From the UHGV virus genome UHGV-1480848: DNA of 32,007 nucleotides; one strand, 5' to 3'. Source of the DNA: a virus. The notes below the pieces were generated by a model. That model ran no database searches, was not told the origin of the DNA, and worked only from the letters and a program-made list of their open reading frames with translations. The position numbers were made by a program, and so were the translations under genes. This document shows, one piece after another, positions 1 to 12,088 of the stretch. Position 1 is the first letter of the stretch. Each line of letters begins with the position of its first letter.

Positions 1-18
1 ATATAAAGAGGTAAATCA

Positions 19-177
19 TTTGATACTGCTGAAAAATCCGGGAGGAAAGTGGATCAAACGGGATTTGATGGGATAAAACAAACAGTTATGACGTAAAACA
101 GTGTTATGCGCACAACATGTGATTTGATACTACTGTCGCAAAGAAAGCTAAAAACGAAAAAATATTTGATACTACTG
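19..177 (+). repeat. Three direct copies of 13-mer TTTGATACT(G/A)CTG; putative transposase end-binding sites (L1/L2/L3-like)
   Basis: Copies seen at 19-31, 123-135 and 165-177, each followed by an A-rich tract; bases 32-70 resemble the Mu left-end sequence CCGGGAGG...GATGGGAT as I recall it. Confidence 0.6.
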
Positions 178-234
178 ATTTCTGCGATTTTAACGTTTTA
201 AACAGGTTAAAAAACCAGCCGCGGGCTATTGGAA

Positions 235-819
235 TTAGCCCGCCTTCGATTCTAAACTACTTGAGAGTTTATCGCTTTCAATTTCTGCCAAAATCTCTCT
301 AACTCTTTCATCCGATAAATGATCTAAAAGTAGAGCTGCTGCACGTTTTCGTCCTTCAAGTTGGATTAGTTCTTGATTCTCTGGTTCAAGTAACCGTGAC
401 AAGTACTTAGCTCCATTTAGCGCGAGGATTTTTGATAATCGCTCTGCCTCTGATGCTTCTAAAGCACTTAGTATAGCAAGAAGGCGCTGTAGCGTTATAT
501 CTAGGGGCAATTGGACGTTTTCATCTATTTTAGGTGATATTGGTTCTATATCCTCCTTGCCAAAAACAAGCCAATCAATGCTCACCCCTTCTGCAAAAGC
601 AATCTGACCAGCTACTTGTAGAGATGGTGTCGCATCTTTCTCAAAGTAGTTGTTAAGTGTTGAGAACGGTAGCCCCCACGCCTTCGCCACGGCAGTCTTG
701 GAGCGCCCGCGCATTAACATGGCTAGGCGCTCTTTAATGCTTTCTTTTTGAAACACAGGAAAAGAAAAATCACTTTCTTTTTCAGTGCTTCTTTCTTTTC
801 TGTTAACTATATGATTCAT
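235..819 (-). CDS. Prophage repressor (c-like), HTH DNA-binding protein
   Basis: Only leftward gene, divergent from ner as in Mu; HTH-like segment SKTAVAKAWGLPFSTLNNY. Start taken at internal ATG (MNHIV...) because the ORF-track N-terminus is an implausible hydrophobic extension; alternative start 870. Confidence 0.7.
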   Translation of the reverse strand: MNHIVNRKERSTEKESDFSFPVFQKESIKERLAMLMRGRSKTAVAKAWGLPFSTLNNYFEKDATPSLQVAGQIAFAEGVSIDWLVFGKEDIEPISPKIDENVQLPLDITLQRLLAILSALEASEAERLSKILALNGAKYLSRLLEPENQELIQLEGRKRAAALLLDHLSDERVREILAEIESDKLSSSLESKAG

Positions 820-959
820 AAAGAAATATCCTTTTGTAGATAAAAACCACCAAAGAAAGAGATAAAACACCTTTACTTTTCTTTTGTAGTGATCAAATAT
901 TTATATGTAGAGATTATCCGGCGGTGTTATCCGCGCAGATAACTTTTAAGGATAAACGA
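820..959. promoter_or_regulatory. Divergent operator/promoter region between repressor and ner
   Basis: AT-rich 140 bp with direct repeat CTTTTGTAG at 831-839 and 881-889, IHF-like core gATCAAatatTTA at 890-902, and imperfect palindrome GTTATC-N6-GATAAC at 926-943. Confidence 0.55.
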
Positions 960-1196
960 ATGATGTCTATAAATGAAGTTGTTAAACAGGACTGGCACCC
1001 CGCGCATGTTGTCGCGGCGGTGCATGTAAAAGGTTTTACTTTACGCTCTCTGTCCATTGAAGCCGGTTTAAACCAGGATTCTTTAAAGAATGCCCTGTAC
1101 CGCAAATGCCCAAAATATGAGCGCATTATTGCTGATGCTATTGGTGTTGCTCCGGAGGAGATCTGGCCCAGCCGTTACGCTCGTAAGGTGGTATAA
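960..1196 (+). CDS. ner: Ner-like DNA-binding protein (negative regulator of early transcription)
   Basis: Translation carries Ner/Nlp-family motifs (DWH..V.A, IIA.A.G..PE.IWPSRY); ATG at 960 preceded by AAGGA; ORF-track start 924 is GTG without a good RBS. Confidence 0.85.
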   Translation: MMSINEVVKQDWHPAHVVAAVHVKGFTLRSLSIEAGLNQDSLKNALYRKCPKYERIIADAIGVAPEEIWPSRYARKVV

Positions 1197-1198
1197 AA

Positions 1199-3286
1199 AT
1201 GTTTGTATCAGTTAATGAGCTTGTAGGGCTACCAGGTATGCCGGGAACTGCGCAAGGGGTGCGGTATTCCATAAGGAAACTGGCCTCATCTGAGCATTTC
1301 AGGCGCAAACGTGCGGGTTCAAAAACCATTGAATACAGCATCGACTGCCTCCCTCCGATTACACAACGGGCGTTACGTGAGCGACATGTAGCTCAACTGA
1401 TGGCAAGCGCCCCGCAGGAGATAACTACCCAGCCTCCTGTAAAGCGTGAACGCAAACAAAATGTTGTACAGCCTGTTGAGGCATATCGCGGTTCGCCACA
1501 ATTGGTAGAAGAGCGTCTGAATGCGCTTACGGAAAATCAACGTAAAGTTGCAGAAGCGCGCATTGCTCTTGTCTGTGAAGTTCTACGAATTAGCCAGGAG
1601 CCGGGATTCAGTTGTGCCAGCGCTATACGTTTTATTGTGTCGCGGTTAGCACAGGGTAACCTGGAAGAACGCCTGGAATCTTTGGTCATTACTGCTAATG
1701 CCCGTAAAGGAAAAGAGCGAACTCTGAGCGCAATTACGCTCAAACGTTGGATAGCTGCGTTTAACAAAGCACAGAATGCCGCAGAACGACTGCTGTTACT
1801 GGCACCAGGAAAGCGCGACGAAATAAAACCGGAAGAAATTAGCTGGCTGCCTGAATTTCTGGCGCAGTATCGTCAGGCTAACGGCAGGCCTATGTCTGAA
1901 GCCTATGAGGATTTTGTCGCTGATTGGCAGCGTCGCCATGCGGACGAACCATACATGCTGGAGGTGATGCCTTCCTATGATGTTGTCCGGTATGCCATGA
2001 AAAAACTGCCGGAAGTGGTGAAACAAAAAGGGCGCGTTACCGGCAGTGAATACCGTCAGCTTGAAGGATTCACCCGCCGCGACTGGACAGCTATGCCGGT
2101 GAATTATGTCTGGATTGGTGACGGTCACGGTATGAAGCTGAAATGTGCGCATCCGGTTCACGGGCGTCCATTTTCACCGGAAGTTACGTTTGTGATCGAC
2201 GGTGGAACCCGGTTTGTGGTTGGCTGGAGTCTTGATCTTGCGGAGAACGTGTTCGCTGTTGCCGGGGCGATACAACACGGCATTCGCAATCATGGAAAAC
2301 CATTCCTGTATTACTCGGATAATGGTTCCGGTGAAACGGCAGATATGCTGGATAAAGAGATCGTCGGGATTCTGCCCCGTCTGGGGATTAACCACCCCAC
2401 CGGTATTGCGGGAAATCCGCAGGGACGCGGCATTATTGAACGCCTGAACCGAACATTACCGATGCGTATAGCCAGGAGGTATCGCACCTATTTCGGCAAG
2501 GGTGCTGACCGGGAATCGTTGCGAGTACTTAATCGTGATCTGCGTTCAGCGTTTAATGCCCTGCAACAGGACAAGCCACTGAGCGCCCGTCAGAAAGCCG
2601 CAATGCGCGAGCTGCCGTCCTGGTCAGAACTGATTGAGGCTATCCGTGAGGGGGTGGAGTGGTACAACAACCGCCCACATTCTGAATTGCCGATGAAACC
2701 AAACGGAAAGCATTACAGCCCGGCAGAGTTCAGAAAAAAACGCTTAGCGGAAGAAGACACTGAAATTGAGTGGCTGAGTGATCTTGAGCTGCGCGACATG
2801 TTCCGCCCGATGGTGGAGCGTCCGGTAAGACGCTGCGAAATCCAGTGGCTGAACAATATTTACTACGCGCCAGAGCTGCGTGATGAACATGGTCGCAAAG
2901 TACTTATCAGCTATGACATTCACGATGCCGAGCGAATTACGGTACGCCGTAAGGACGGTAGCTTTATCTGTGAGGCGATATGGAACGGCAATAAACGCGC
3001 AGCCTTTCCTGTCACGGCTGAATATCACAAACAACAGCAGCGTATTAAAGGCATGCGCAAGCGTGCTGAGGAAAAAATTCGTGATGCAGAGGATGAAGGT
3101 ATTCAGATTCTGGAACACAAACAGGCTGAACCCTGGCTGGATAATGTTTATCGCCCGGTTGGTAATACGGTAACCATCCGGCAACAGGATTATGAGGAAG
3201 ATTACGACGAAGATTATGAACGCGATTTCAGGCTGGGTTTGCAAAAACTTGCAGCCATACAGGAACAGGATGATCCGCTGGCCTGA
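1199..3286 (+). CDS. A: DDE transposase, MuA-like
   Basis: 695 aa directly after ner; Mu-transposase-like core (VWIGDGHGMKLK, NHGKPFLYYSDNGS) and acidic C-terminal tail. Confidence 0.93.
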   Translation: MFVSVNELVGLPGMPGTAQGVRYSIRKLASSEHFRRKRAGSKTIEYSIDCLPPITQRALRERHVAQLMASAPQEITTQPPVKRERKQNVVQPVEAYRGSPQLVEERLNALTENQRKVAEARIALVCEVLRISQEPGFSCASAIRFIVSRLAQGNLEERLESLVITANARKGKERTLSAITLKRWIAAFNKAQNAAERLLLLAPGKRDEIKPEEISWLPEFLAQYRQANGRPMSEAYEDFVADWQRRHADEPYMLEVMPSYDVVRYAMKKLPEVVKQKGRVTGSEYRQLEGFTRRDWTAMPVNYVWIGDGHGMKLKCAHPVHGRPFSPEVTFVIDGGTRFVVGWSLDLAENVFAVAGAIQHGIRNHGKPFLYYSDNGSGETADMLDKEIVGILPRLGINHPTGIAGNPQGRGIIERLNRTLPMRIARRYRTYFGKGADRESLRVLNRDLRSAFNALQQDKPLSARQKAAMRELPSWSELIEAIREGVEWYNNRPHSELPMKPNGKHYSPAEFRKKRLAEEDTEIEWLSDLELRDMFRPMVERPVRRCEIQWLNNIYYAPELRDEHGRKVLISYDIHDAERITVRRKDGSFICEAIWNGNKRAAFPVTAEYHKQQQRIKGMRKRAEEKIRDAEDEGIQILEHKQAEPWLDNVYRPVGNTVTIRQQDYEEDYDEDYERDFRLGLQKLAAIQEQDDPLA

Positions 3287-3358
3287 ATAAAAAACAGTCC
3301 GCGGGAACGGACTGTTAAGTAAAGGAAACAAAGCTGATTTGAATAAACGGAGAATAAT

Positions 3359-4291
3359 ATGACCGATATTAATGATGTTTTCAACACAATTAATGCGCTG
3401 ATTACTGACGGTGTAAAAACACAAAGCGCTATCGCCAAAGAAGCTGGCGTGTCGGAGGCCACTCTTTCTGAACTTCGCAAAGGCCGTTACAAAGGCGATA
3501 CCGAAGGGATGCACAACAAATTACTGATGTGGCATCAGGGCTGGCAGAAAAGTCTGGAGTTGCCCGGCACCCCACAACTTGTGGAAACACAGACCCTGCG
3601 TGATTTGCGTGAACTTTTTCAGACAGTGCGTGTTATGGGGTGTATCAGCGTTCTGGTGGGTGTGCCGGGGGTAGGAAAAACCGTTGCGGCCCGTGAATAC
3701 AGTAACCGCGTATCTAATACCTGGATGGTAACCCTTTCCCCTGCACACTCAACGGTGACGGAATGTCTGCTGGAACTGGCAGACGCGCTGGGAATTGATA
3801 ACCCGCAAAGGAATAAAGGCGCGCTGACCCGTGCCATTCGCAAAAAACTGAACGGTACACGCGGTCTGGTGATTGTGGATGAAGCTGACCACCTGAGCAT
3901 TGACGGGCTGGAACAATTACGTGCCATTCAGGATGCCACCGGAGTCGGGATGGTATTGATTGGTAACCCCAGTCAGTTAGCCAAAGCCACACATCGGGGA
4001 ACGGATGACCTTGCACGTTTGTTCAGTCGTTTCGCCAGGACAAAGCAACTACGTAAAGCCAAAAAGGCTGACGTGGTGGCAATTGCGAAAGCCTGGGGCA
4101 TTGAGGGCGAAGATGAATTATCACTCATGCAGAGCATCGCGGAAAAGCCAGGCGCATTGCGTGTATTAACTCACACGCTGAATCAGGCGTGGCTGGCAGC
4201 CAGCGGGAAAGGCGTTCCTCTGTCCAAAGGCTACATAAAAGCGGCTTTTAAAGAGGTTTACAGCAACCCGAAATTACTGAACTGGTGGTAA
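3359..4291 (+). CDS. B: Transposition ATPase / target DNA activator, MuB-like (AAA+)
   Basis: 310 aa; N-terminal HTH; Walker A GVPGVGKT; Walker B LVIVDEADHL; follows A. Confidence 0.93.
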   Translation: MTDINDVFNTINALITDGVKTQSAIAKEAGVSEATLSELRKGRYKGDTEGMHNKLLMWHQGWQKSLELPGTPQLVETQTLRDLRELFQTVRVMGCISVLVGVPGVGKTVAAREYSNRVSNTWMVTLSPAHSTVTECLLELADALGIDNPQRNKGALTRAIRKKLNGTRGLVIVDEADHLSIDGLEQLRAIQDATGVGMVLIGNPSQLAKATHRGTDDLARLFSRFARTKQLRKAKKADVVAIAKAWGIEGEDELSLMQSIAEKPGALRVLTHTLNQAWLAASGKGVPLSKGYIKAAFKEVYSNPKLLNWW

Positions 4292-4305
4292 GGGGATAAT
4301 AAATA

Positions 4306-8303: not shown

Positions 8304-8855
8304 ATGAGTCGCACATCCCTGATTAAATTAATCCATGTTGCCCGTCGGGAGCTACAACTCGACGACGACACTTACCGCGCTTTTCTGATGCAGAAAACGG
8401 GCAAAATCAGTTGCCGCGAGCTTACGGTTACGCAACTGGAACAGGTGCTCGATGCCATGAAAGAACGCGGCTTTAAGAAGCTGAATAAATACCCCCGTCG
8501 CCGCTTTAAGGGACATGTCACACCCCGCGAGAAGGTGTATAAAATCTGGCAGCAGATGGCAGAAGACGGTTTTATTACCGATGGCGGTGATGTGGCGCTG
8601 GACAGATATGTTCAACGCCTGACCGCGAAACGCAACGGCGGACAGGGTGTTTCCACACTGGCGTGGTGTCATGGCGACACGCTGCTGACAGTCCTCGAAA
8701 CACTCAAGCAGTGGCACATCCGCTGTATTCGTGAAGCCTTTTCCCGTCACGGGCTTCCGTTGCCGGTCAGTCCGTCCGGTCGTGAACTGCGCGGCTATGA
8801 TGCCATGACGGCGGCTTATGCCCATGCCAGAAAGACACGGAGGATGGCACAATGA
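8304..8855 (+). CDS. gemA: GemA-like protein (Mu gp16 family)
   Basis: 183 aa immediately upstream of mor as in Mu; GGAGG RBS. Confidence 0.75.
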   Translation: MSRTSLIKLIHVARRELQLDDDTYRAFLMQKTGKISCRELTVTQLEQVLDAMKERGFKKLNKYPRRRFKGHVTPREKVYKIWQQMAEDGFITDGGDVALDRYVQRLTAKRNGGQGVSTLAWCHGDTLLTVLETLKQWHIRCIREAFSRHGLPLPVSPSGRELRGYDAMTAAYAHARKTRRMAQ

Positions 8856-9241
8856 CGGAAGATTTATTTGGTGATTTGCAGGATGACACCATCCTGGCAC
8901 ATCTTGACAATCCCGCAGAGGATACGTCACGCTTTCCGGCACTGCTGGCGGAGCTGAACGATTTACTACGCGGGGAATTGTCCCGGCTGGGTGTTGATCC
9001 TGCCCATTCACTGGAGATTGTTGTGGCTATCTGTAAGCATCTGGGCGGCGGTCAGGTCTACATTCCACGCGGTCAGGTTCTGGACTCGCTGATTCGGGAT
9101 TTGCGTATCTGGAATGATTTTAACGGTCGCAACGTCAGCGAACTGACCACCCGTTATGGTGTCACTTTCAATACGGTTTACAAGGCCATTCGCCGGATGC
9201 GACGGCTGAAATACCGCCAGTACCAGCCCTCACTTCTGTAA
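8852..9241 (+). CDS. mor: Middle operon regulator Mor (Mor/C family transcription activator)
   Basis: 129 aa; shares HLGGGQVYIPRG and FNGRN motifs with the downstream C paralog (FLGGRQFYIPCG, FNGRN). Confidence 0.9.
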   Translation: MTEDLFGDLQDDTILAHLDNPAEDTSRFPALLAELNDLLRGELSRLGVDPAHSLEIVVAICKHLGGGQVYIPRGQVLDSLIRDLRIWNDFNGRNVSELTTRYGVTFNTVYKAIRRMRRLKYRQYQPSLL

Positions 9242-9246
9242 ACAGT

Positions 9247-9271
9247 AAAGCCGGTTAATCCGGCTTTTTTT
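9247..9271 (+). terminator. Rho-independent terminator ending the early operon
   Basis: AAAGCCGG-TTAAT-CCGGCTTT hairpin followed by a T-run, 6 nt after the mor stop. Confidence 0.8.
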
Positions 9272-9318
9272 ACGCCCTCAATATCCTGTGATGAATAACC
9301 GTACCGGGGGAAATCATC

Positions 9319-9537
9319 ATGGGTAAAGGCTGGAATGCATCCTTTCATCTTGGCAGACGTGAGCGGCTGCGTCAGGAGGTTTTGCACCGTGTCGCCGGTG
9401 GGCCACGGCCTGCGCCCCGCGACTATACCGGTCATGATGGCACCCACGGCAGTTATTACATGAAAGGCTGGCAGTCAGTTGATATGCCGGAAATTCTTCA
9501 TCATTGCCTGCTTTACAGGGAGAAACATGATGTCTGA
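9319..9537 (+). CDS. Hypothetical middle-operon protein
   Basis: 72-aa ORF between the early terminator and C; no motif recognised. Confidence 0.35.
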   Translation: MGKGWNASFHLGRRERLRQEVLHRVAGGPRPAPRDYTGHDGTHGSYYMKGWQSVDMPEILHHCLLYREKHDV

Positions 9538-9892
9538 GCGTTCTGCTCGTCAGTGGCCTGATTTTTTATCGGTGGTGTTACTGGCGCTGTTATTGTGGAT
9601 AAGTCTGTTTTGTGGCTGGCGCGCGCTGATGTTTTGCTGTGCCTCGGTTTTCAGTGTTGCTTTATGTGTTGCCGGTGATTGTCTGGATGCGCTGATAATG
9701 AGCTGCCGGGTGCCTGAACATTTTGCCCGGTTCGTCTGGCCTCTGACCTGGCTGGGGAGTCTGTCCGGGCTGGGATTAGCCGTGATGGCAACGTCTCAAC
9801 TGAAAACGGGTCCTGAGCATGTCATCTGGGCGCTGGCCGGATTGCTGACGTTCTGGCTCTCCTTTCGTTTTCGCGCTCGTCTGTTCGGGTAA
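9527..9892 (+). CDS. Putative integral membrane protein (about 4 TM segments)
   Basis: ATG 9527 preceded by AGGGAG; hydrophobic stretches VVLLALLLWISLF, ALMFCCASVFSVALCVA, LTWLGSLSGLGLAVMA, VIWALAGLLTFWL. Confidence 0.55.
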   Translation: MMSERSARQWPDFLSVVLLALLLWISLFCGWRALMFCCASVFSVALCVAGDCLDALIMSCRVPEHFARFVWPLTWLGSLSGLGLAVMATSQLKTGPEHVIWALAGLLTFWLSFRFRARLFG

Positions 9893-9901
9893 AGGGGCAC
9901 C

Positions 9902-10021
9902 ATGTACAGAAAATTCAGTGATGAATGTTTCGGGCCGTCCACGCTGATTAGTGCGATAAAAGTGATTGCCCTTGTGGTTCTGATAACCATCAGTGCCGTG
10001 GTGTATCTTTCTGTCTGTTAA
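9902..10021 (+). CDS. Putative 39-aa single-TM peptide (below ORF-track size cutoff)
   Basis: Hand-translated: MYRKFSDECFGPSTLISAIKVIALVVLITISAVVYLSVC; weak AGGGG RBS; fills the gap between the membrane protein and C. Confidence 0.3.
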   Translation: MYRKFSDECFGPSTLISAIKVIALVVLITISAVVYLSVC

Positions 10022-10033
10022 CCGGGGGAAAAT

Positions 10034-10456
10034 ATGCAGCATGATTTATTTGAACACGATCCGGCAATTCGCCAGTTAATCGGACATATTGATAACATCC
10101 CGGCCCCGGAACTGGAATCACGCTGGCCCCGTTCGGTGGTTGATCTGATTGATGTTCTGGAAAACGAACTGAAACGCCAGAACGTCAGCAATCCCCGTGA
10201 GCTTGCCCGTAAACAGGCCGTTGCCCTGTCCTGTTTTCTGGGCGGACGGCAGTTTTACATCCCCTGCGGCGATACGATCCTGACCGCGTTACGCGACGAT
10301 TTGCTTTACTGCCAGTTCAATGGTCGTAACATGGAAGAACTGCGTCGCCAGTATCGCCTGTCCCAGCCGCAGATCTACCAGATTATTGCCCGCCAGAGAA
10401 AGCTGCATACACGACGTCATCAGCCTGATCTGTTCTCACCTGAAAGCCAGAAATAA
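10034..10456 (+). CDS. C: Late gene transcription activator C (Mor/C family)
   Basis: 140 aa; paralog of Mor by shared motifs; precedes the lysis and morphogenesis genes. Confidence 0.9.
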   Translation: MQHDLFEHDPAIRQLIGHIDNIPAPELESRWPRSVVDLIDVLENELKRQNVSNPRELARKQAVALSCFLGGRQFYIPCGDTILTALRDDLLYCQFNGRNMEELRRQYRLSQPQIYQIIARQRKLHTRRHQPDLFSPESQK

Positions 10457-10477
10457 CCGGCATCCTGCCGGTTATTT
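10451..10477 (+). terminator. 12-bp perfect hairpin overlapping the C stop codon; likely middle-transcript terminator
   Basis: AAATAACCGGCA-TCC-TGCCGGTTATTT; U-rich 3' arm; overlaps the TAA of C. Confidence 0.6.
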
Positions 10478-10480
10478 CCT

Positions 10481-10547
10481 GTCACCATAATCCCGCACCT
10501 GCCATCTGATTTTTTAGACTGCCATCAGAGCATTTTTTCAGGGAAGC
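10481..10547 (+). promoter_or_regulatory. Candidate C-dependent late promoter upstream of lys
   Basis: Intergenic region between the C terminator and lys; carries CCCGCACCT at 10493-10501 (also found upstream of I) and direct repeat TGCCATC at 10500-10506 and 10521-10527. Confidence 0.45.
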
Positions 10548-11066
10548 ATGATGGCGGGGATACCAAAAAAACTGAAAGCCGCACTGCTGGCGGCAACGAT
10601 TGCCGGTGGCAGTGTGGGTGGTTATCAGGAAATGACCCGTCAGTCTCTGATCCATCTGGAAAATATCGCTTATATGCCTTACCGCGATATTGCCGGTGTG
10701 CTTACGGTCTGTGTGGGACATACCGGGCCGGATATCGAAATGCGCCGTTACAGCCATGCGGAGTGTATGGCTCTTCTCGACAGTGATTTAAAACCGGTTT
10801 ATGCGGCAATCGATCGTCTTGTCAGGGTGCCGCTGACGCCATATCAGAAAACGGCGCTGGCAACGTTTATTTTCAACACCGGTGTTACCGCATTCAGTAA
10901 ATCAACGCTGCTGAAAAAACTCAATGCCGGTGATTACGCCGGAGCGCGTGACCAGATGGCCCGCTGGGTGTTTGCCGCAGGCCATAAATGGAAAGGACTG
11001 ATGAACCGTCGCGAAGTGGAAATGGCTATCTGGAATATCAGGGGGGCGGATGACCTTCGCCAGTAA
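10548..11066 (+). CDS. lys: SAR endolysin (T4-lysozyme-like muramidase with N-terminal signal-anchor-release domain)
   Basis: 172 aa; N-terminus KKLKAALLAATIAGGSVGGY is Gly/Ala-rich and weakly hydrophobic, typical of SAR domains; closely resembles Mu Lys as remembered. Confidence 0.85.
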   Translation: MMAGIPKKLKAALLAATIAGGSVGGYQEMTRQSLIHLENIAYMPYRDIAGVLTVCVGHTGPDIEMRRYSHAECMALLDSDLKPVYAAIDRLVRVPLTPYQKTALATFIFNTGVTAFSKSTLLKKLNAGDYAGARDQMARWVFAAGHKWKGLMNRREVEMAIWNIRGADDLRQ

Positions 11067-11436
11067 AAGTTTACTGCTGGCAGCCGTGTTTGCCGCCGTT
11101 CTGTCCGGGGTGTTGTGGCACAGGCTGGACAGCACCCGCCACGATAACCAGACGCTGCGCCGTGAATTACAGACGGAGCAACAGGCCCGCCACACTGCTG
11201 AATGGTTGTTACACGGTCAGGAACAGACGATGCAGGTATTTTCCGCTATCCGTGCCGCAAATCGTGCCGCACGGCTGGCAGATGAGACAGAACATCATGA
11301 TGCAAAAGAAAAAATTACAACCGCCATTACCGGTGACAATTGCAGCACTCGTCCTGTGCCTGCCGTTGCTGCTGACAGGTTGCGGGAACTCGAAAAACGC
11401 ACCCGTGCCATCGGTGGTGATCCTGCCCGAAACTGA
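11050..11436 (+). CDS. Inner-membrane spanin component (Rz-like i-spanin)
   Basis: N-terminal TM LLLAAVFAAVLSGVLW followed by a charged helical region; overlaps the end of lys. Confidence 0.7.
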   Translation: MTFASKSLLLAAVFAAVLSGVLWHRLDSTRHDNQTLRRELQTEQQARHTAEWLLHGQEQTMQVFSAIRAANRAARLADETEHHDAKEKITTAITGDNCSTRPVPAVAADRLRELEKRTRAIGGDPARN

Positions 11437-11638
11437 TGCAGAACTGACGGAAGCCACGCCCGTTCCGCCCATGCCACAGCCCCTGACGTGGGGTGCATCC
11501 CTTCTCTGGAATGCTGACCTGTTGATGGCGCTCGGGCAGTGCAACCGCGACAAGGCATCAGTCCGGGAACAGGAGACCCGAAGGAAAGAAATTTATGAAC
11601 GAAGACCAGAACCGGGCGGTGGCGCTGCTGCTCGCTGA
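11297..11638 (+). CDS. Outer-membrane lipoprotein spanin component (Rz1-like o-spanin)
   Basis: Starts in a different frame inside the i-spanin gene; lipoprotein signal with lipobox LLTGC; Pro-rich mature region; start could be 11282 or 11300. Confidence 0.65.
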   Translation: MMQKKKLQPPLPVTIAALVLCLPLLLTGCGNSKNAPVPSVVILPETDAELTEATPVPPMPQPLTWGASLLWNADLLMALGQCNRDKASVREQETRRKEIYERRPEPGGGAAAR

Positions 11639-11789
11639 ACTCTGGCAGGGGGATACCCGTGATATTCCCCGCCCGGCGGCGTATGACCCGCCTGTATTGT
11701 GTGCCGGTTGCGGTCGTGAGCTGCGGCCTGATGTGCTGAGACAGCAGCCGATGGCGAACTACTGCCACTGGTGCCGTGGAGCAGAATAA
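11595..11789 (+). CDS. Small zinc-finger protein (TraR/DksA-like C4 motif)
   Basis: 64 aa; CAGC...x17...CHWC; AAGGAAAG RBS; ends in TAATG overlap with the next gene. Confidence 0.5.
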   Translation: MNEDQNRAVALLLAELWQGDTRDIPRPAAYDPPVLCAGCGRELRPDVLRQQPMANYCHWCRGAE

Positions 11790-12088
11790 TGGATTTGATT
11801 TCAGTTTTAGCGTTATGGCCTTACCTGTTGCCTGTTGTGGCCGGTGGGGCCGTCTGGGCGATGCGTCGTAGTTTTGCCAGCACCGAGCGTGTGGAGCGTC
11901 TTGAAAACCGGATGACCGAAATGGAAACCCGCTACGCCAGCATCCCTGGCACAGAAGATGTACACGAAATGCGCCTGCGAATTGCAGAGCTGTCCGGCGA
12001 TATCCGGGTGCTGTCCCAGCGGGTGCAGTCATTTTCCCATCAACTGGAGCTGCTGCTTGAAAACGCAGTAAACCGGAGTAATTCATGA
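11789..12088 (+). CDS. Membrane-anchored coiled-coil protein, Mu gp25-like (releasin candidate)
   Basis: N-terminal TM ISVLALWPYLLPVVAGGAVWA then coiled-coil; position matches Mu gp25. ORF-track start 11771 is GTG; ATG 11789 preferred. Confidence 0.6.
   Translation: MDLISVLALWPYLLPVVAGGAVWAMRRSFASTERVERLENRMTEMETRYASIPGTEDVHEMRLRIAELSGDIRVLSQRVQSFSHQLELLLENAVNRSNS

Follow-up and report, generated by a model that had tools for sequence, protein, structure and literature searches.

The question raised by three small genes lying between the early terminator and the late activator gene C of the UHGV virus genome UHGV-1480848 is whether they serve lysis, some other membrane function or nothing much at all. 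The whole stretch of DNA analysed, 32,007 nt long, is referred to here as the window. An initial annotation, made from the letters of the window, had placed a 72-aa ORF, a roughly four-transmembrane (4-TM) protein and a hand-found 39-aa single-TM peptide in this interval. Its coordinates proved base-exact, position 9319 being the A of the gene 18 ATG and position 10021 the final stop base of gene 20. The locus and its surroundings comprise the following features.

8852..9241, + strand: mor, the middle-promoter activator and upstream boundary (Pfam Mor, 4.1e-33; Mu annotation)
9247..9272, + strand: early-operon terminator hairpin AAAGCCGGTTAATCCGGCTTTTTTT, annotated in Mu (AF083977) and D108 (GQ357916)
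9319..9537, + strand: gene 18 (gp18), 72 aa, soluble with three predicted helices (PF26867 Phage_Mu_gp18; phrog_2121)
9530..9892, + strand: gene 19 (gp19), 120 aa, four-helix inner-membrane protein (phrog_4975; alternative ATG at 9527)
9902..10021, + strand: gene 20 (gp20), 39 aa, single-TM peptide (phrog_19823)
10034..10456, + strand: C, the late activator and downstream boundary (Pfam Mor family, 9.3e-34; Mu annotation)
10548..12088, + strand: late lysis cassette with SAR endolysin gp22, spanins gp23/23.1, gp24 and releasin gp25 (context only)

The three ORFs are already catalogued. In transposable phages of the Mu/D108 type they are known as genes 18, 19 and 20, the names under which all three are annotated in the GenBank records of D108 (GQ357916) and Mu (AF083977). 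The 792 bp from the Mor stop to the C start (9242-10033) are 99.6% identical to D108 and 99.1% identical to Mu. The order Mor-18-19-20-C and the gene overlaps are those of Mu and D108 (Mup18-20; E18, E19), from which the window departs by point differences only, e.g. ATGATG at 9527 where both Mu and D108 have ATTATG. As a whole the window has the look of a Muvirus mosaic, its left 4.3 kb resembling Yersinia phage vB_YpM_5 and the remainder being ~98% identical to D108/Mu.

Genes 18-20 are packed closely on the + strand, with overlaps or gaps of 10-13 nt as far as the C start, and SD-like purine-rich runs (GGGGGAA, AGGGAG and AGGGG) lie 6-9 nt 5' of all three ATGs. Transcription of all three, together with C, starts at middle times from Pm, which depends on Mor; between them and lys come a terminator and Plys, a C-dependent promoter (PMC9239132). 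C is the sole middle-operon gene reported as needed. The early terminator, a hairpin with a T-run downstream of the Mor gene, is identical in sequence to that of the Mu and D108 records and falls within the region annotated in Mu as Pm. A simple terminator scan overlooked it because the scan extends the stem into the T-run, and an Rfam scan of 9100-10600 gave a single hit, sroD on the terminator, at chance level (E 0.46). Beyond C, the GH24 lysozyme gp22 occupies 10548-11066 (Pfam Phage_lysozyme, 1e-37), and the re-annotated Mu record labels the downstream genes SAR endolysin (22), spanins (23, 23.1) and releasin (25). The late cassette is assigned from the Pfam match, this re-annotation, PMC9239132 and the architecture given by tblastn.

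To judge from their conservation, genes 18, 19 and 20 are all genuine coding genes, and all three are under purifying selection (dN/dS 0.04-0.41). For gene 18 the ratio is 0.04-0.30, with synonymous change saturated, for gene 19 it is 0.30 and for gene 20 it is 0.34-0.41. The initial annotation held that function could not be read from the sequence, and the searches bear this out: Pfam, NCBIfam and the PDB gave no functional match for gp18, gp19 or gp20, their PHROGs families are all of ‘unknown function’, and PADLOC gave no match for gp18 or gp20 and only E 0.056 to a 2TM model for gp19. A search of the literature found no paper giving genes 18-20 a function and no exclusion experiment on them.

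The middle ORF was given by the ORF lister as 137 aa from a TTG at 9479, but the start annotated in Mu/D108 is the ATG at 9530, which yields 120 aa; a second in-frame ATG is present in the window at 9527. The match of gp19 to phrog_4975 (E 2.2e-72) covers 120 of 120 positions, between genes 18 and 20. The prediction of about four TM segments stands, as AlphaFold2 (AF2) gives four helices (residues 9-28, 30-58, 64-89 and 96-119; pLDDT 66 and pTM 0.45, too low to compare folds) and the GenBank Mu record describes a 4-TM protein with N-in/C-in topology, with which the arginine-rich C-terminus (RFRARLFG) is compatible. The 39-aa peptide found by hand is likewise real. A single strongly hydrophobic stretch (Kyte-Doolittle mean 2.77), the Mu/D108 annotation (1-TM, N-in/C-out in Mu) and a conserved ORF in relatives all support it, and gp20 matches phrog_19823 (E 8.2e-30) over 39 of 39 positions immediately 5' of C. 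It is retained as a 39-46-aa TM ORF down to 37% identity, and at 37-38% identity divergent alleles of genes 19 and 20 together keep their length and hydrophobic, TM pattern.

The description of the Mor-dependent middle operon as carrying uncharacterized membrane proteins therefore fits gp19 and gp20, but gp18 is instead a small soluble protein. No hydrophobic segment is present in it, the highest 19-residue Kyte-Doolittle mean being 0.03, and AF2 gives three helices (4-26, 40-52 and 56-70; pLDDT 85.6, with one of five models confident). We conclude that gp18 is a small cytoplasmic protein of predicted helical structure. It is 99% identical to the Mu/D108 gene 18 product, and the 11 gp18 homologues returned (one of them 93% identical) all bear the precomputed label PF26867, i.e. 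Phage_Mu_gp18; a direct Pfam scan of gp18 gave no match with a model set that lacked PF26867. In a set of 11 homologues, 34 residues are invariant. The gene is intact in relatives down to ~30% aa identity and at all of the ~180 loci examined, frameshifted metagenome assemblies excepted. The family is small: an exhaustive HMMER scan of 1.84 billion proteins found 17 representatives. Foldseek of the gp18 model against the PDB and BFVD gave nothing below E=1, and comparison with PDB sequences gave no match at E<=10.

Several more specific ideas about gp18 were tried and abandoned. By eye, gp18 has a likeness to RMF/CrpP in an R(D/E)RL ... S-x-aromatic-x-x-G-W motif of similar spacing. As a candidate relationship it was rejected: hhalign aligned no more than 13 columns and gave a probability of 0.3%, a phage RMF came no higher than rank 7 (E 3.1) in Foldseek, which turned up none from the PDB, and 14 gp18 family members found no Pfam match at E<=10 in this test. 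Residues H23, H/C39, H43 and C63 are invariant among close homologues and could have bound zinc, but H23, H43 and C63 are lost in distant family members. Apparent natural fusions, which might have served as Rosetta-stone evidence, dissolve into gp18 frameshifted into a downstream 4-TM gene, and these long forms (P0021, P0054 and the ORF at locus L017) are probably sequencing or assembly errors.

Gene 19 has a patchier distribution. It is missing from SfMu and vB_YpM_5, in which gene 18 runs directly into gene 20, and is found in 15 of the 29 loci with Mor as well as C and in ~20 of 41 complete E. coli genomes carrying the region, about half being without it. By its distribution gene 19 is a present/absent cassette. 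The family is confined to Enterobacterales and consists of six clusters among 5.8 billion proteins, the window protein being 98% identical to cluster P0001. A wider relationship emerges from comparison with a 134-136-aa 4-TM protein encoded after gp18 in prophages that lack C: hhalign aligns the two with 85% probability over 94 columns, taking in all four helices, and the profile score is 37.6 as against 14.8±2.6 (maximum 21.3) in 30 block-shuffled controls, a separation of ~9 SD, and 11.6 for the reversed profile. On these profile comparisons gp19 is homologous to the 4-TM protein of the C-less prophages, and the combined family amounts to 28 clusters, all ‘hypothetical’. A divergent gene 19 allele (locus L032) looks, by eye, intermediate between the two.

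The surroundings of these homologues were compared at ~180 related loci. Of gp18-containing loci, 98 were classified by tblastn, and 80 close GH108 loci were fetched independently. In 78 of the 98 loci GH108 is the gene directly 5' of gp18, one more locus retains a truncated GH108 remnant, and gp18 lies downstream in 80 of the 80 close GH108 relatives, counts that come mostly from closely related Enterobacterales prophages and are not independent events. The gp18 start comes 0-8 nt from where GH108 ends, and the gene that follows begins before gp18 has ended, in the way gene 19 overlaps gene 18 in Mu. The association extends to distant gp18 relatives (~30-55% identity), which are still immediately 3' of a GH108+PG_binding_3 gene and are found near a TraR-like protein, a DUF2730 protein and a protein matching Pfam GTA_holin_3TM (44.3 bits, cut-off 24.8). 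It is this neighbour, and not the homologues of the window ORFs, that matches the holin family; gp19 and gp20 themselves gave no match in a Pfam scan to GTA_holin_3TM (PF11351).

Two arrangements account for the 98 loci. The majority, 69, have no C and also no GH24 lysozyme. Here the upstream order is GemA, Mor, variable cargo, early terminator hairpin, GH108+PG_binding_3 muramidase and gp18, the hairpin being conserved directly 5' of GH108; gp18 is followed by the 134-136-aa 4-TM protein, a 201-203-aa protein (H203), a TraR-type zinc finger, a DUF2730 releasin, gp26, gp27 and terminase. In relatives, the position behind Mor forms a hot spot of variable cargo, which ranges from secreted proteins and a KAP NTPase to small proteins of the membrane. 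The other 29 loci are Mu-like, with Mor and C. GH108 is kept in 11 of them (e.g. vB_YpM_5), and gene 20 is present in all 29 and in none of the 69 C-less loci. The C-less cassette has no counterpart of gp20 apart from a 10-residue N-terminal resemblance; that gp20 derives, by truncation, from the N-terminal part of a gp19-like gene is speculative, these 10 residues being all that align (P 0.007). The phrog_2121 profile, of 284 positions, spans both gp18 and H203. H203 resembles GTA_holin_3TM or other holins only weakly (Pfam E 0.003-0.007, sub-threshold). It was rejected as a holin, as it has only these matches and its profile does not significantly match that of the true GTA holin in the distant relatives. 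A third lineage (L202-L207) has GemA, terminator, a C-like activator, a GH24 SAR lysozyme, gp23, gp24 and gp25, and neither Mor nor genes 18-20.

Judged by gene order and homology, what Mu carries as genes 18 and 19 is its version of a module that heads the lysis/late operon, beginning right behind the early terminator, in C-less transposable prophages. As far as the literature searched shows, this link of genes 18 and 19 to a GH108/holin-type lysis cluster has not been described, and it would represent a modest advance.

The explanation to which we lean, though we would stop a little short of calling it probable, is that genes 18-20 are leftovers or accessories of the head of an ancestral lysis operon, with gp18 and gp19, and perhaps gp20, acting as modulators of lysis and not as hole-formers. 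The 5' part of the Mu middle operon would be what remains of the head of a Mor-controlled, GH108-type lysis/late operon. In the Muvirus lineage this head would have been joined to a C/SAR-endolysin/spanin/releasin module resembling the one in the third lineage; GH108 would later have been lost in Mu, D108 and SfMu, gene 19 would have become optional, and the ‘middle’ timing of gp18 and gp19 would be a derived feature. The proteins themselves would be accessory modulators of envelope lysis that tune the timing or activity of muramidase, holin or releasin, and genes 18-20 would be dispensable in laboratory Mu because they modulate and do not form holes.

The two halves of this explanation differ in strength. 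The evolutionary half, i.e. the joining of a lysis-operon head to a C module with loss of GH108, seems fairly likely from the comparison of loci; its direction (loss or gain of GH108, mosaic origin) is something we infer. The functional half, in which gp18 and gp19 modulate lysis, is more tentative and to us somewhat less than an even prospect. Synteny in the phage genomes is no more than suggestive of a role in lysis. Against such a role, gp18 is kept in Mu and SfMu, both of which are without GH108 and the holin-like gene, so neither of the two can be an absolute requirement for what gp18 does. The experiments on Mu lysis described below also count against it.

A sharper version centres on gp18. 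The PF26867 protein might be an unrecognized cytoplasmic component of the lysis machinery in transposable phages, inherited along with the signal-less GH108 enzyme, translationally coupled to it and regulating, together with the gp19-type 4-TM protein, the muramidase, the holin or the DUF2730 releasin. We consider this doubtful; if true, the Mu middle operon would be the fossil junction of a Mor-controlled GH108 operon and a C-controlled SAR-endolysin operon, and the fusion of the two would have created the three-tier early/middle/late cascade of Mu.

Alternatively, gp19 and gp20 could be ‘moron’-type accessory functions unrelated to lysis, such as keeping out superinfecting phage DNA during the lytic cycle, or changes to the host envelope or physiology, with gp18 an unrelated small regulator. 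Gene 19 behaves as such a gene might, coming and going between conserved flanks; its family is tiny and restricted to Enterobacterales, and the position after Mor is where variable cargo accumulates in the relatives. Moreover, the known exclusion protein Imm of T4 is a small membrane protein. What makes this reading unlikely is, first, that the homologue of gp19 has a stable place in the lysis cluster and is not part of the variable cargo, and that the adjacency of gp18 and GH108 is conserved at deep divergence. Second, there is no match to PADLOC or other defence families. Third, expression is Mor-dependent and limited to lytic growth, which is unusual for prophage exclusion genes; a Mor-activated lytic promoter as the sole source argues against a role in protecting the lysogen, and nothing in the analysis favoured superinfection exclusion, which the initial annotation had also suggested.

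It could also be held that genes 18-20 are near-functionless, decaying remnants that persist as a translated leader bringing ribosomes and transcription to C. Their dispensability in the laboratory (PMC9239132), the frequent loss of gene 19 and the prior disappearance of GH108 and the holin-like gene from Mu all agree with decay, and the tight packing up to the C start fits translational coupling. Decay is nevertheless hard to square with the purifying selection on all three genes, with the invariant residues of gp18 and its intactness across the loci examined, with an intact gene 20 wherever Mor and C occur together, or with the length and TM character preserved in the divergent gene 19 and 20 alleles, and we rate this reading as distinctly unlikely.

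There remains the suggestion in the initial annotation of a holin/antiholin-like pair. This is not new, having been published in 2021 and experimentally rejected in 2022. According to its citation in PMC9239132, Samanta et al. (2021) proposed gp19/gp20 as such a pair. Like holins, gp19 with its four helices and gp20 with its one TM segment are small proteins with at least one TM domain; they are not co-expressed with the endolysin on the late lysis transcript. In the work of Chamblee et al. (2022; PMC9239132), DNP was added after induction of gp19, gp20 or both, and viability was unchanged; lambda S105 and phage 21 S68, put through the same depolarization test, did kill the cells. DNP delays Mu lysis and does not trigger it, the spanin tests relied for lysis on a gp22-gp25 construct without genes 18-21, and earlier genetics, in so far as this source relays it, saw no significant effect of inactivation on lysis (PMC9239132). 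The same work agrees with the observation in the initial annotation that the downstream cassette has no canonical holin: Mu lacks one because the releasin gp25 acts on the SAR endolysin gp22 and frees it (PMC9239132). The natural absence of gene 19 from SfMu, which forms plaques, and from about half of the E. coli Muvirus prophages is consistent with its not being required for lysis.

The case for gp19/gp20 as the holin/antiholin pair that Mu seems to lack draws on their small size and their four and one TM segments near the endolysin gene of a phage without a recognizable holin, and on the gp19 homologues placed between muramidase and holin-like gene in relatives, but against the DNP result, the lysis seen on inactivation as relayed in PMC9239132, the sufficiency of gp22, gp25 and the spanins to account for lysis and the natural losses of gene 19, such a pair is extremely improbable, and hole formation has in our view already been refuted. 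A looser link to lysis fares better than hole formation, since relatives do have the homologues of both gene 18 and gene 19 flanked by a muramidase and a holin-like gene.

As first described, the locus amounts to three annotated, non-essential Mu genes that were already known. The remaining value is comparative, in that many transposable prophages of Enterobacterales prove to conserve genes 18 and 19 within a muramidase/holin-type cluster. This offers a concrete and inexpensive experimental way into genes left without an assigned function since their sequencing around 1990. The comparison further bears on the role of the DUF2730 ‘releasins’ in phages whose endolysins have no signal sequence, and it suggests that the Mor-to-C cascade of Mu could stem from the mosaic joining of two lineages with a single activator each. 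Current understanding is unchanged unless a phenotype emerges for genes 18-20.

Among known systems, the holin/antiholin pairs S105/S107 of lambda and S68/S71 of phage 21 resemble gp19/gp20 in being small membrane proteins encoded near an endolysin, but gp19 and gp20 are middle and not late proteins, are not lethal on depolarization and are not required for lysis. The exclusion proteins Imm and Sp of T4 and SieA of P22 are, like gp19 and gp20, small inner-membrane proteins encoded by phages; there is no homology between them, and gp19 and gp20 differ in that their expression is lytic and Mor-dependent. P2 LysA has four TM segments, is non-essential and affects the timing of lysis, while T4 RIII and P1 LydB are small cytoplasmic antiholins. 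These three offer an analogy only, as small dispensable proteins, multi-TM or cytoplasmic, in or near lysis clusters; no similarity of sequence or fold was detected, and Mu has no holin to antagonize. The other comparison is with the cassettes that pair GH108 with a GTA-type 3-TM holin (PF05838+PF09374 with PF11351; ‘holin-associated N-acetylmuramidase’ in NCBIfam), in which gp18 and gp19 have no described role. The window differs from them in having neither GH108 nor the holin-like gene, its endolysin being a GH24 SAR enzyme under a separate, C-dependent promoter. Yet in related transposable prophages the gp18 homologues lie between the two genes of the cassette, and in Enterobacterales the gp19 homologues lie there with them.

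Gene 19, which encodes the 4-TM protein of the Mor-dependent middle operon, is a clean present/absent cassette. It is present in the window at 9530-9892 but missing from SfMu (locus L003, 1578-1908) and from Yersinia phage vB_YpM_5 (L004, 1793-2135), in both of which gene 18 is followed directly by gene 20 and the two genes overlap, gene 20 starting before gene 18 has ended. The final ~40 nt of gene 18 are unlike in the forms with and without gene 19, while the flanks are ~99% identical, and this pattern suggests that the cassette is exchanged by recombination. At the start of gene 19 the window reads ATGATG (9527-9532), where Mu and D108 have ATTATG; the gene therefore has two adjacent in-frame start codons.

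Mosaicism is apparent at the left end of the window. Positions 1-4294, the repressor/ner/transposase side, match Yersinia phages vB_YpM_5/6 and have no Mu or D108 match at megablast level, whereas from 4294 onward identity to D108/Mu is ~98%. Judged by these matches, the phage is a mosaic whose immunity/early region differs from that of Mu/D108.

A single PHROGs family profile of 284 positions, phrog_2121, matches gp18, the product of gene 18, through its N-terminal positions 3-73 and the 201-203-aa holin-like protein through its C-terminal positions 89-273; this reflects either a genuine fusion of the two in some phage or a mis-annotated read-through merged into the family. In three independent sequences (L017 3956-4546 and the long protein hits P0021 and P0054) gp18 is frameshifted into the downstream 4-TM gene, a product that arises because the 4-TM frame is open far upstream of its ATG. 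Though recurrent, these are probably assembly errors.

Relatives carry a cargo hot spot in the slot that separates Mor from the lysis genes, as seen at:
L005/L008, 1813-2325
L017, 2982-3314
L056, 3267-3590
L098-L100, 800-3334
What is carried differs by locus: secreted proteins of 161-170 aa, membrane proteins of 107-110 aa, NTPases of the KAP family or a protein of 838 aa.

In some Muviruses, namely vB_YpM_5 (L004, 1240-1800), L030 and L032-L040, the middle operon opens with a gene for a GH108+PG_binding_3 muramidase. These phages also encode the late GH24 SAR endolysin, and a single phage thus carries two muramidases, each under a different activator. Mu-type gp24 (window 11595-11789; 64 aa, CxxC...CxxC) occupies the slot of the Pfam zf-dskA_traR protein of C-less cassettes (compared with L008, 4215-4445). 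Its Pfam matches are weak and confined to NinF/DUF7575; gp24 could be a TraR-like zinc finger that has diverged.

A related lineage, L202-L207 (e.g. L203, 1472-3510), has one C-like activator, which shares 58-75% identity with Mu C and is placed after GemA and then a terminator, with the Mu-type SAR endolysin cassette directly 3' of it. In L203, the one locus inspected for this feature, a minus-strand secreted-protein gene also precedes the activator. Since this lineage has a single C-like activator and lacks Mor and genes 18-20, the Mor-to-C cascade of Mu may itself be a mosaic in which two single-activator lineages were combined.
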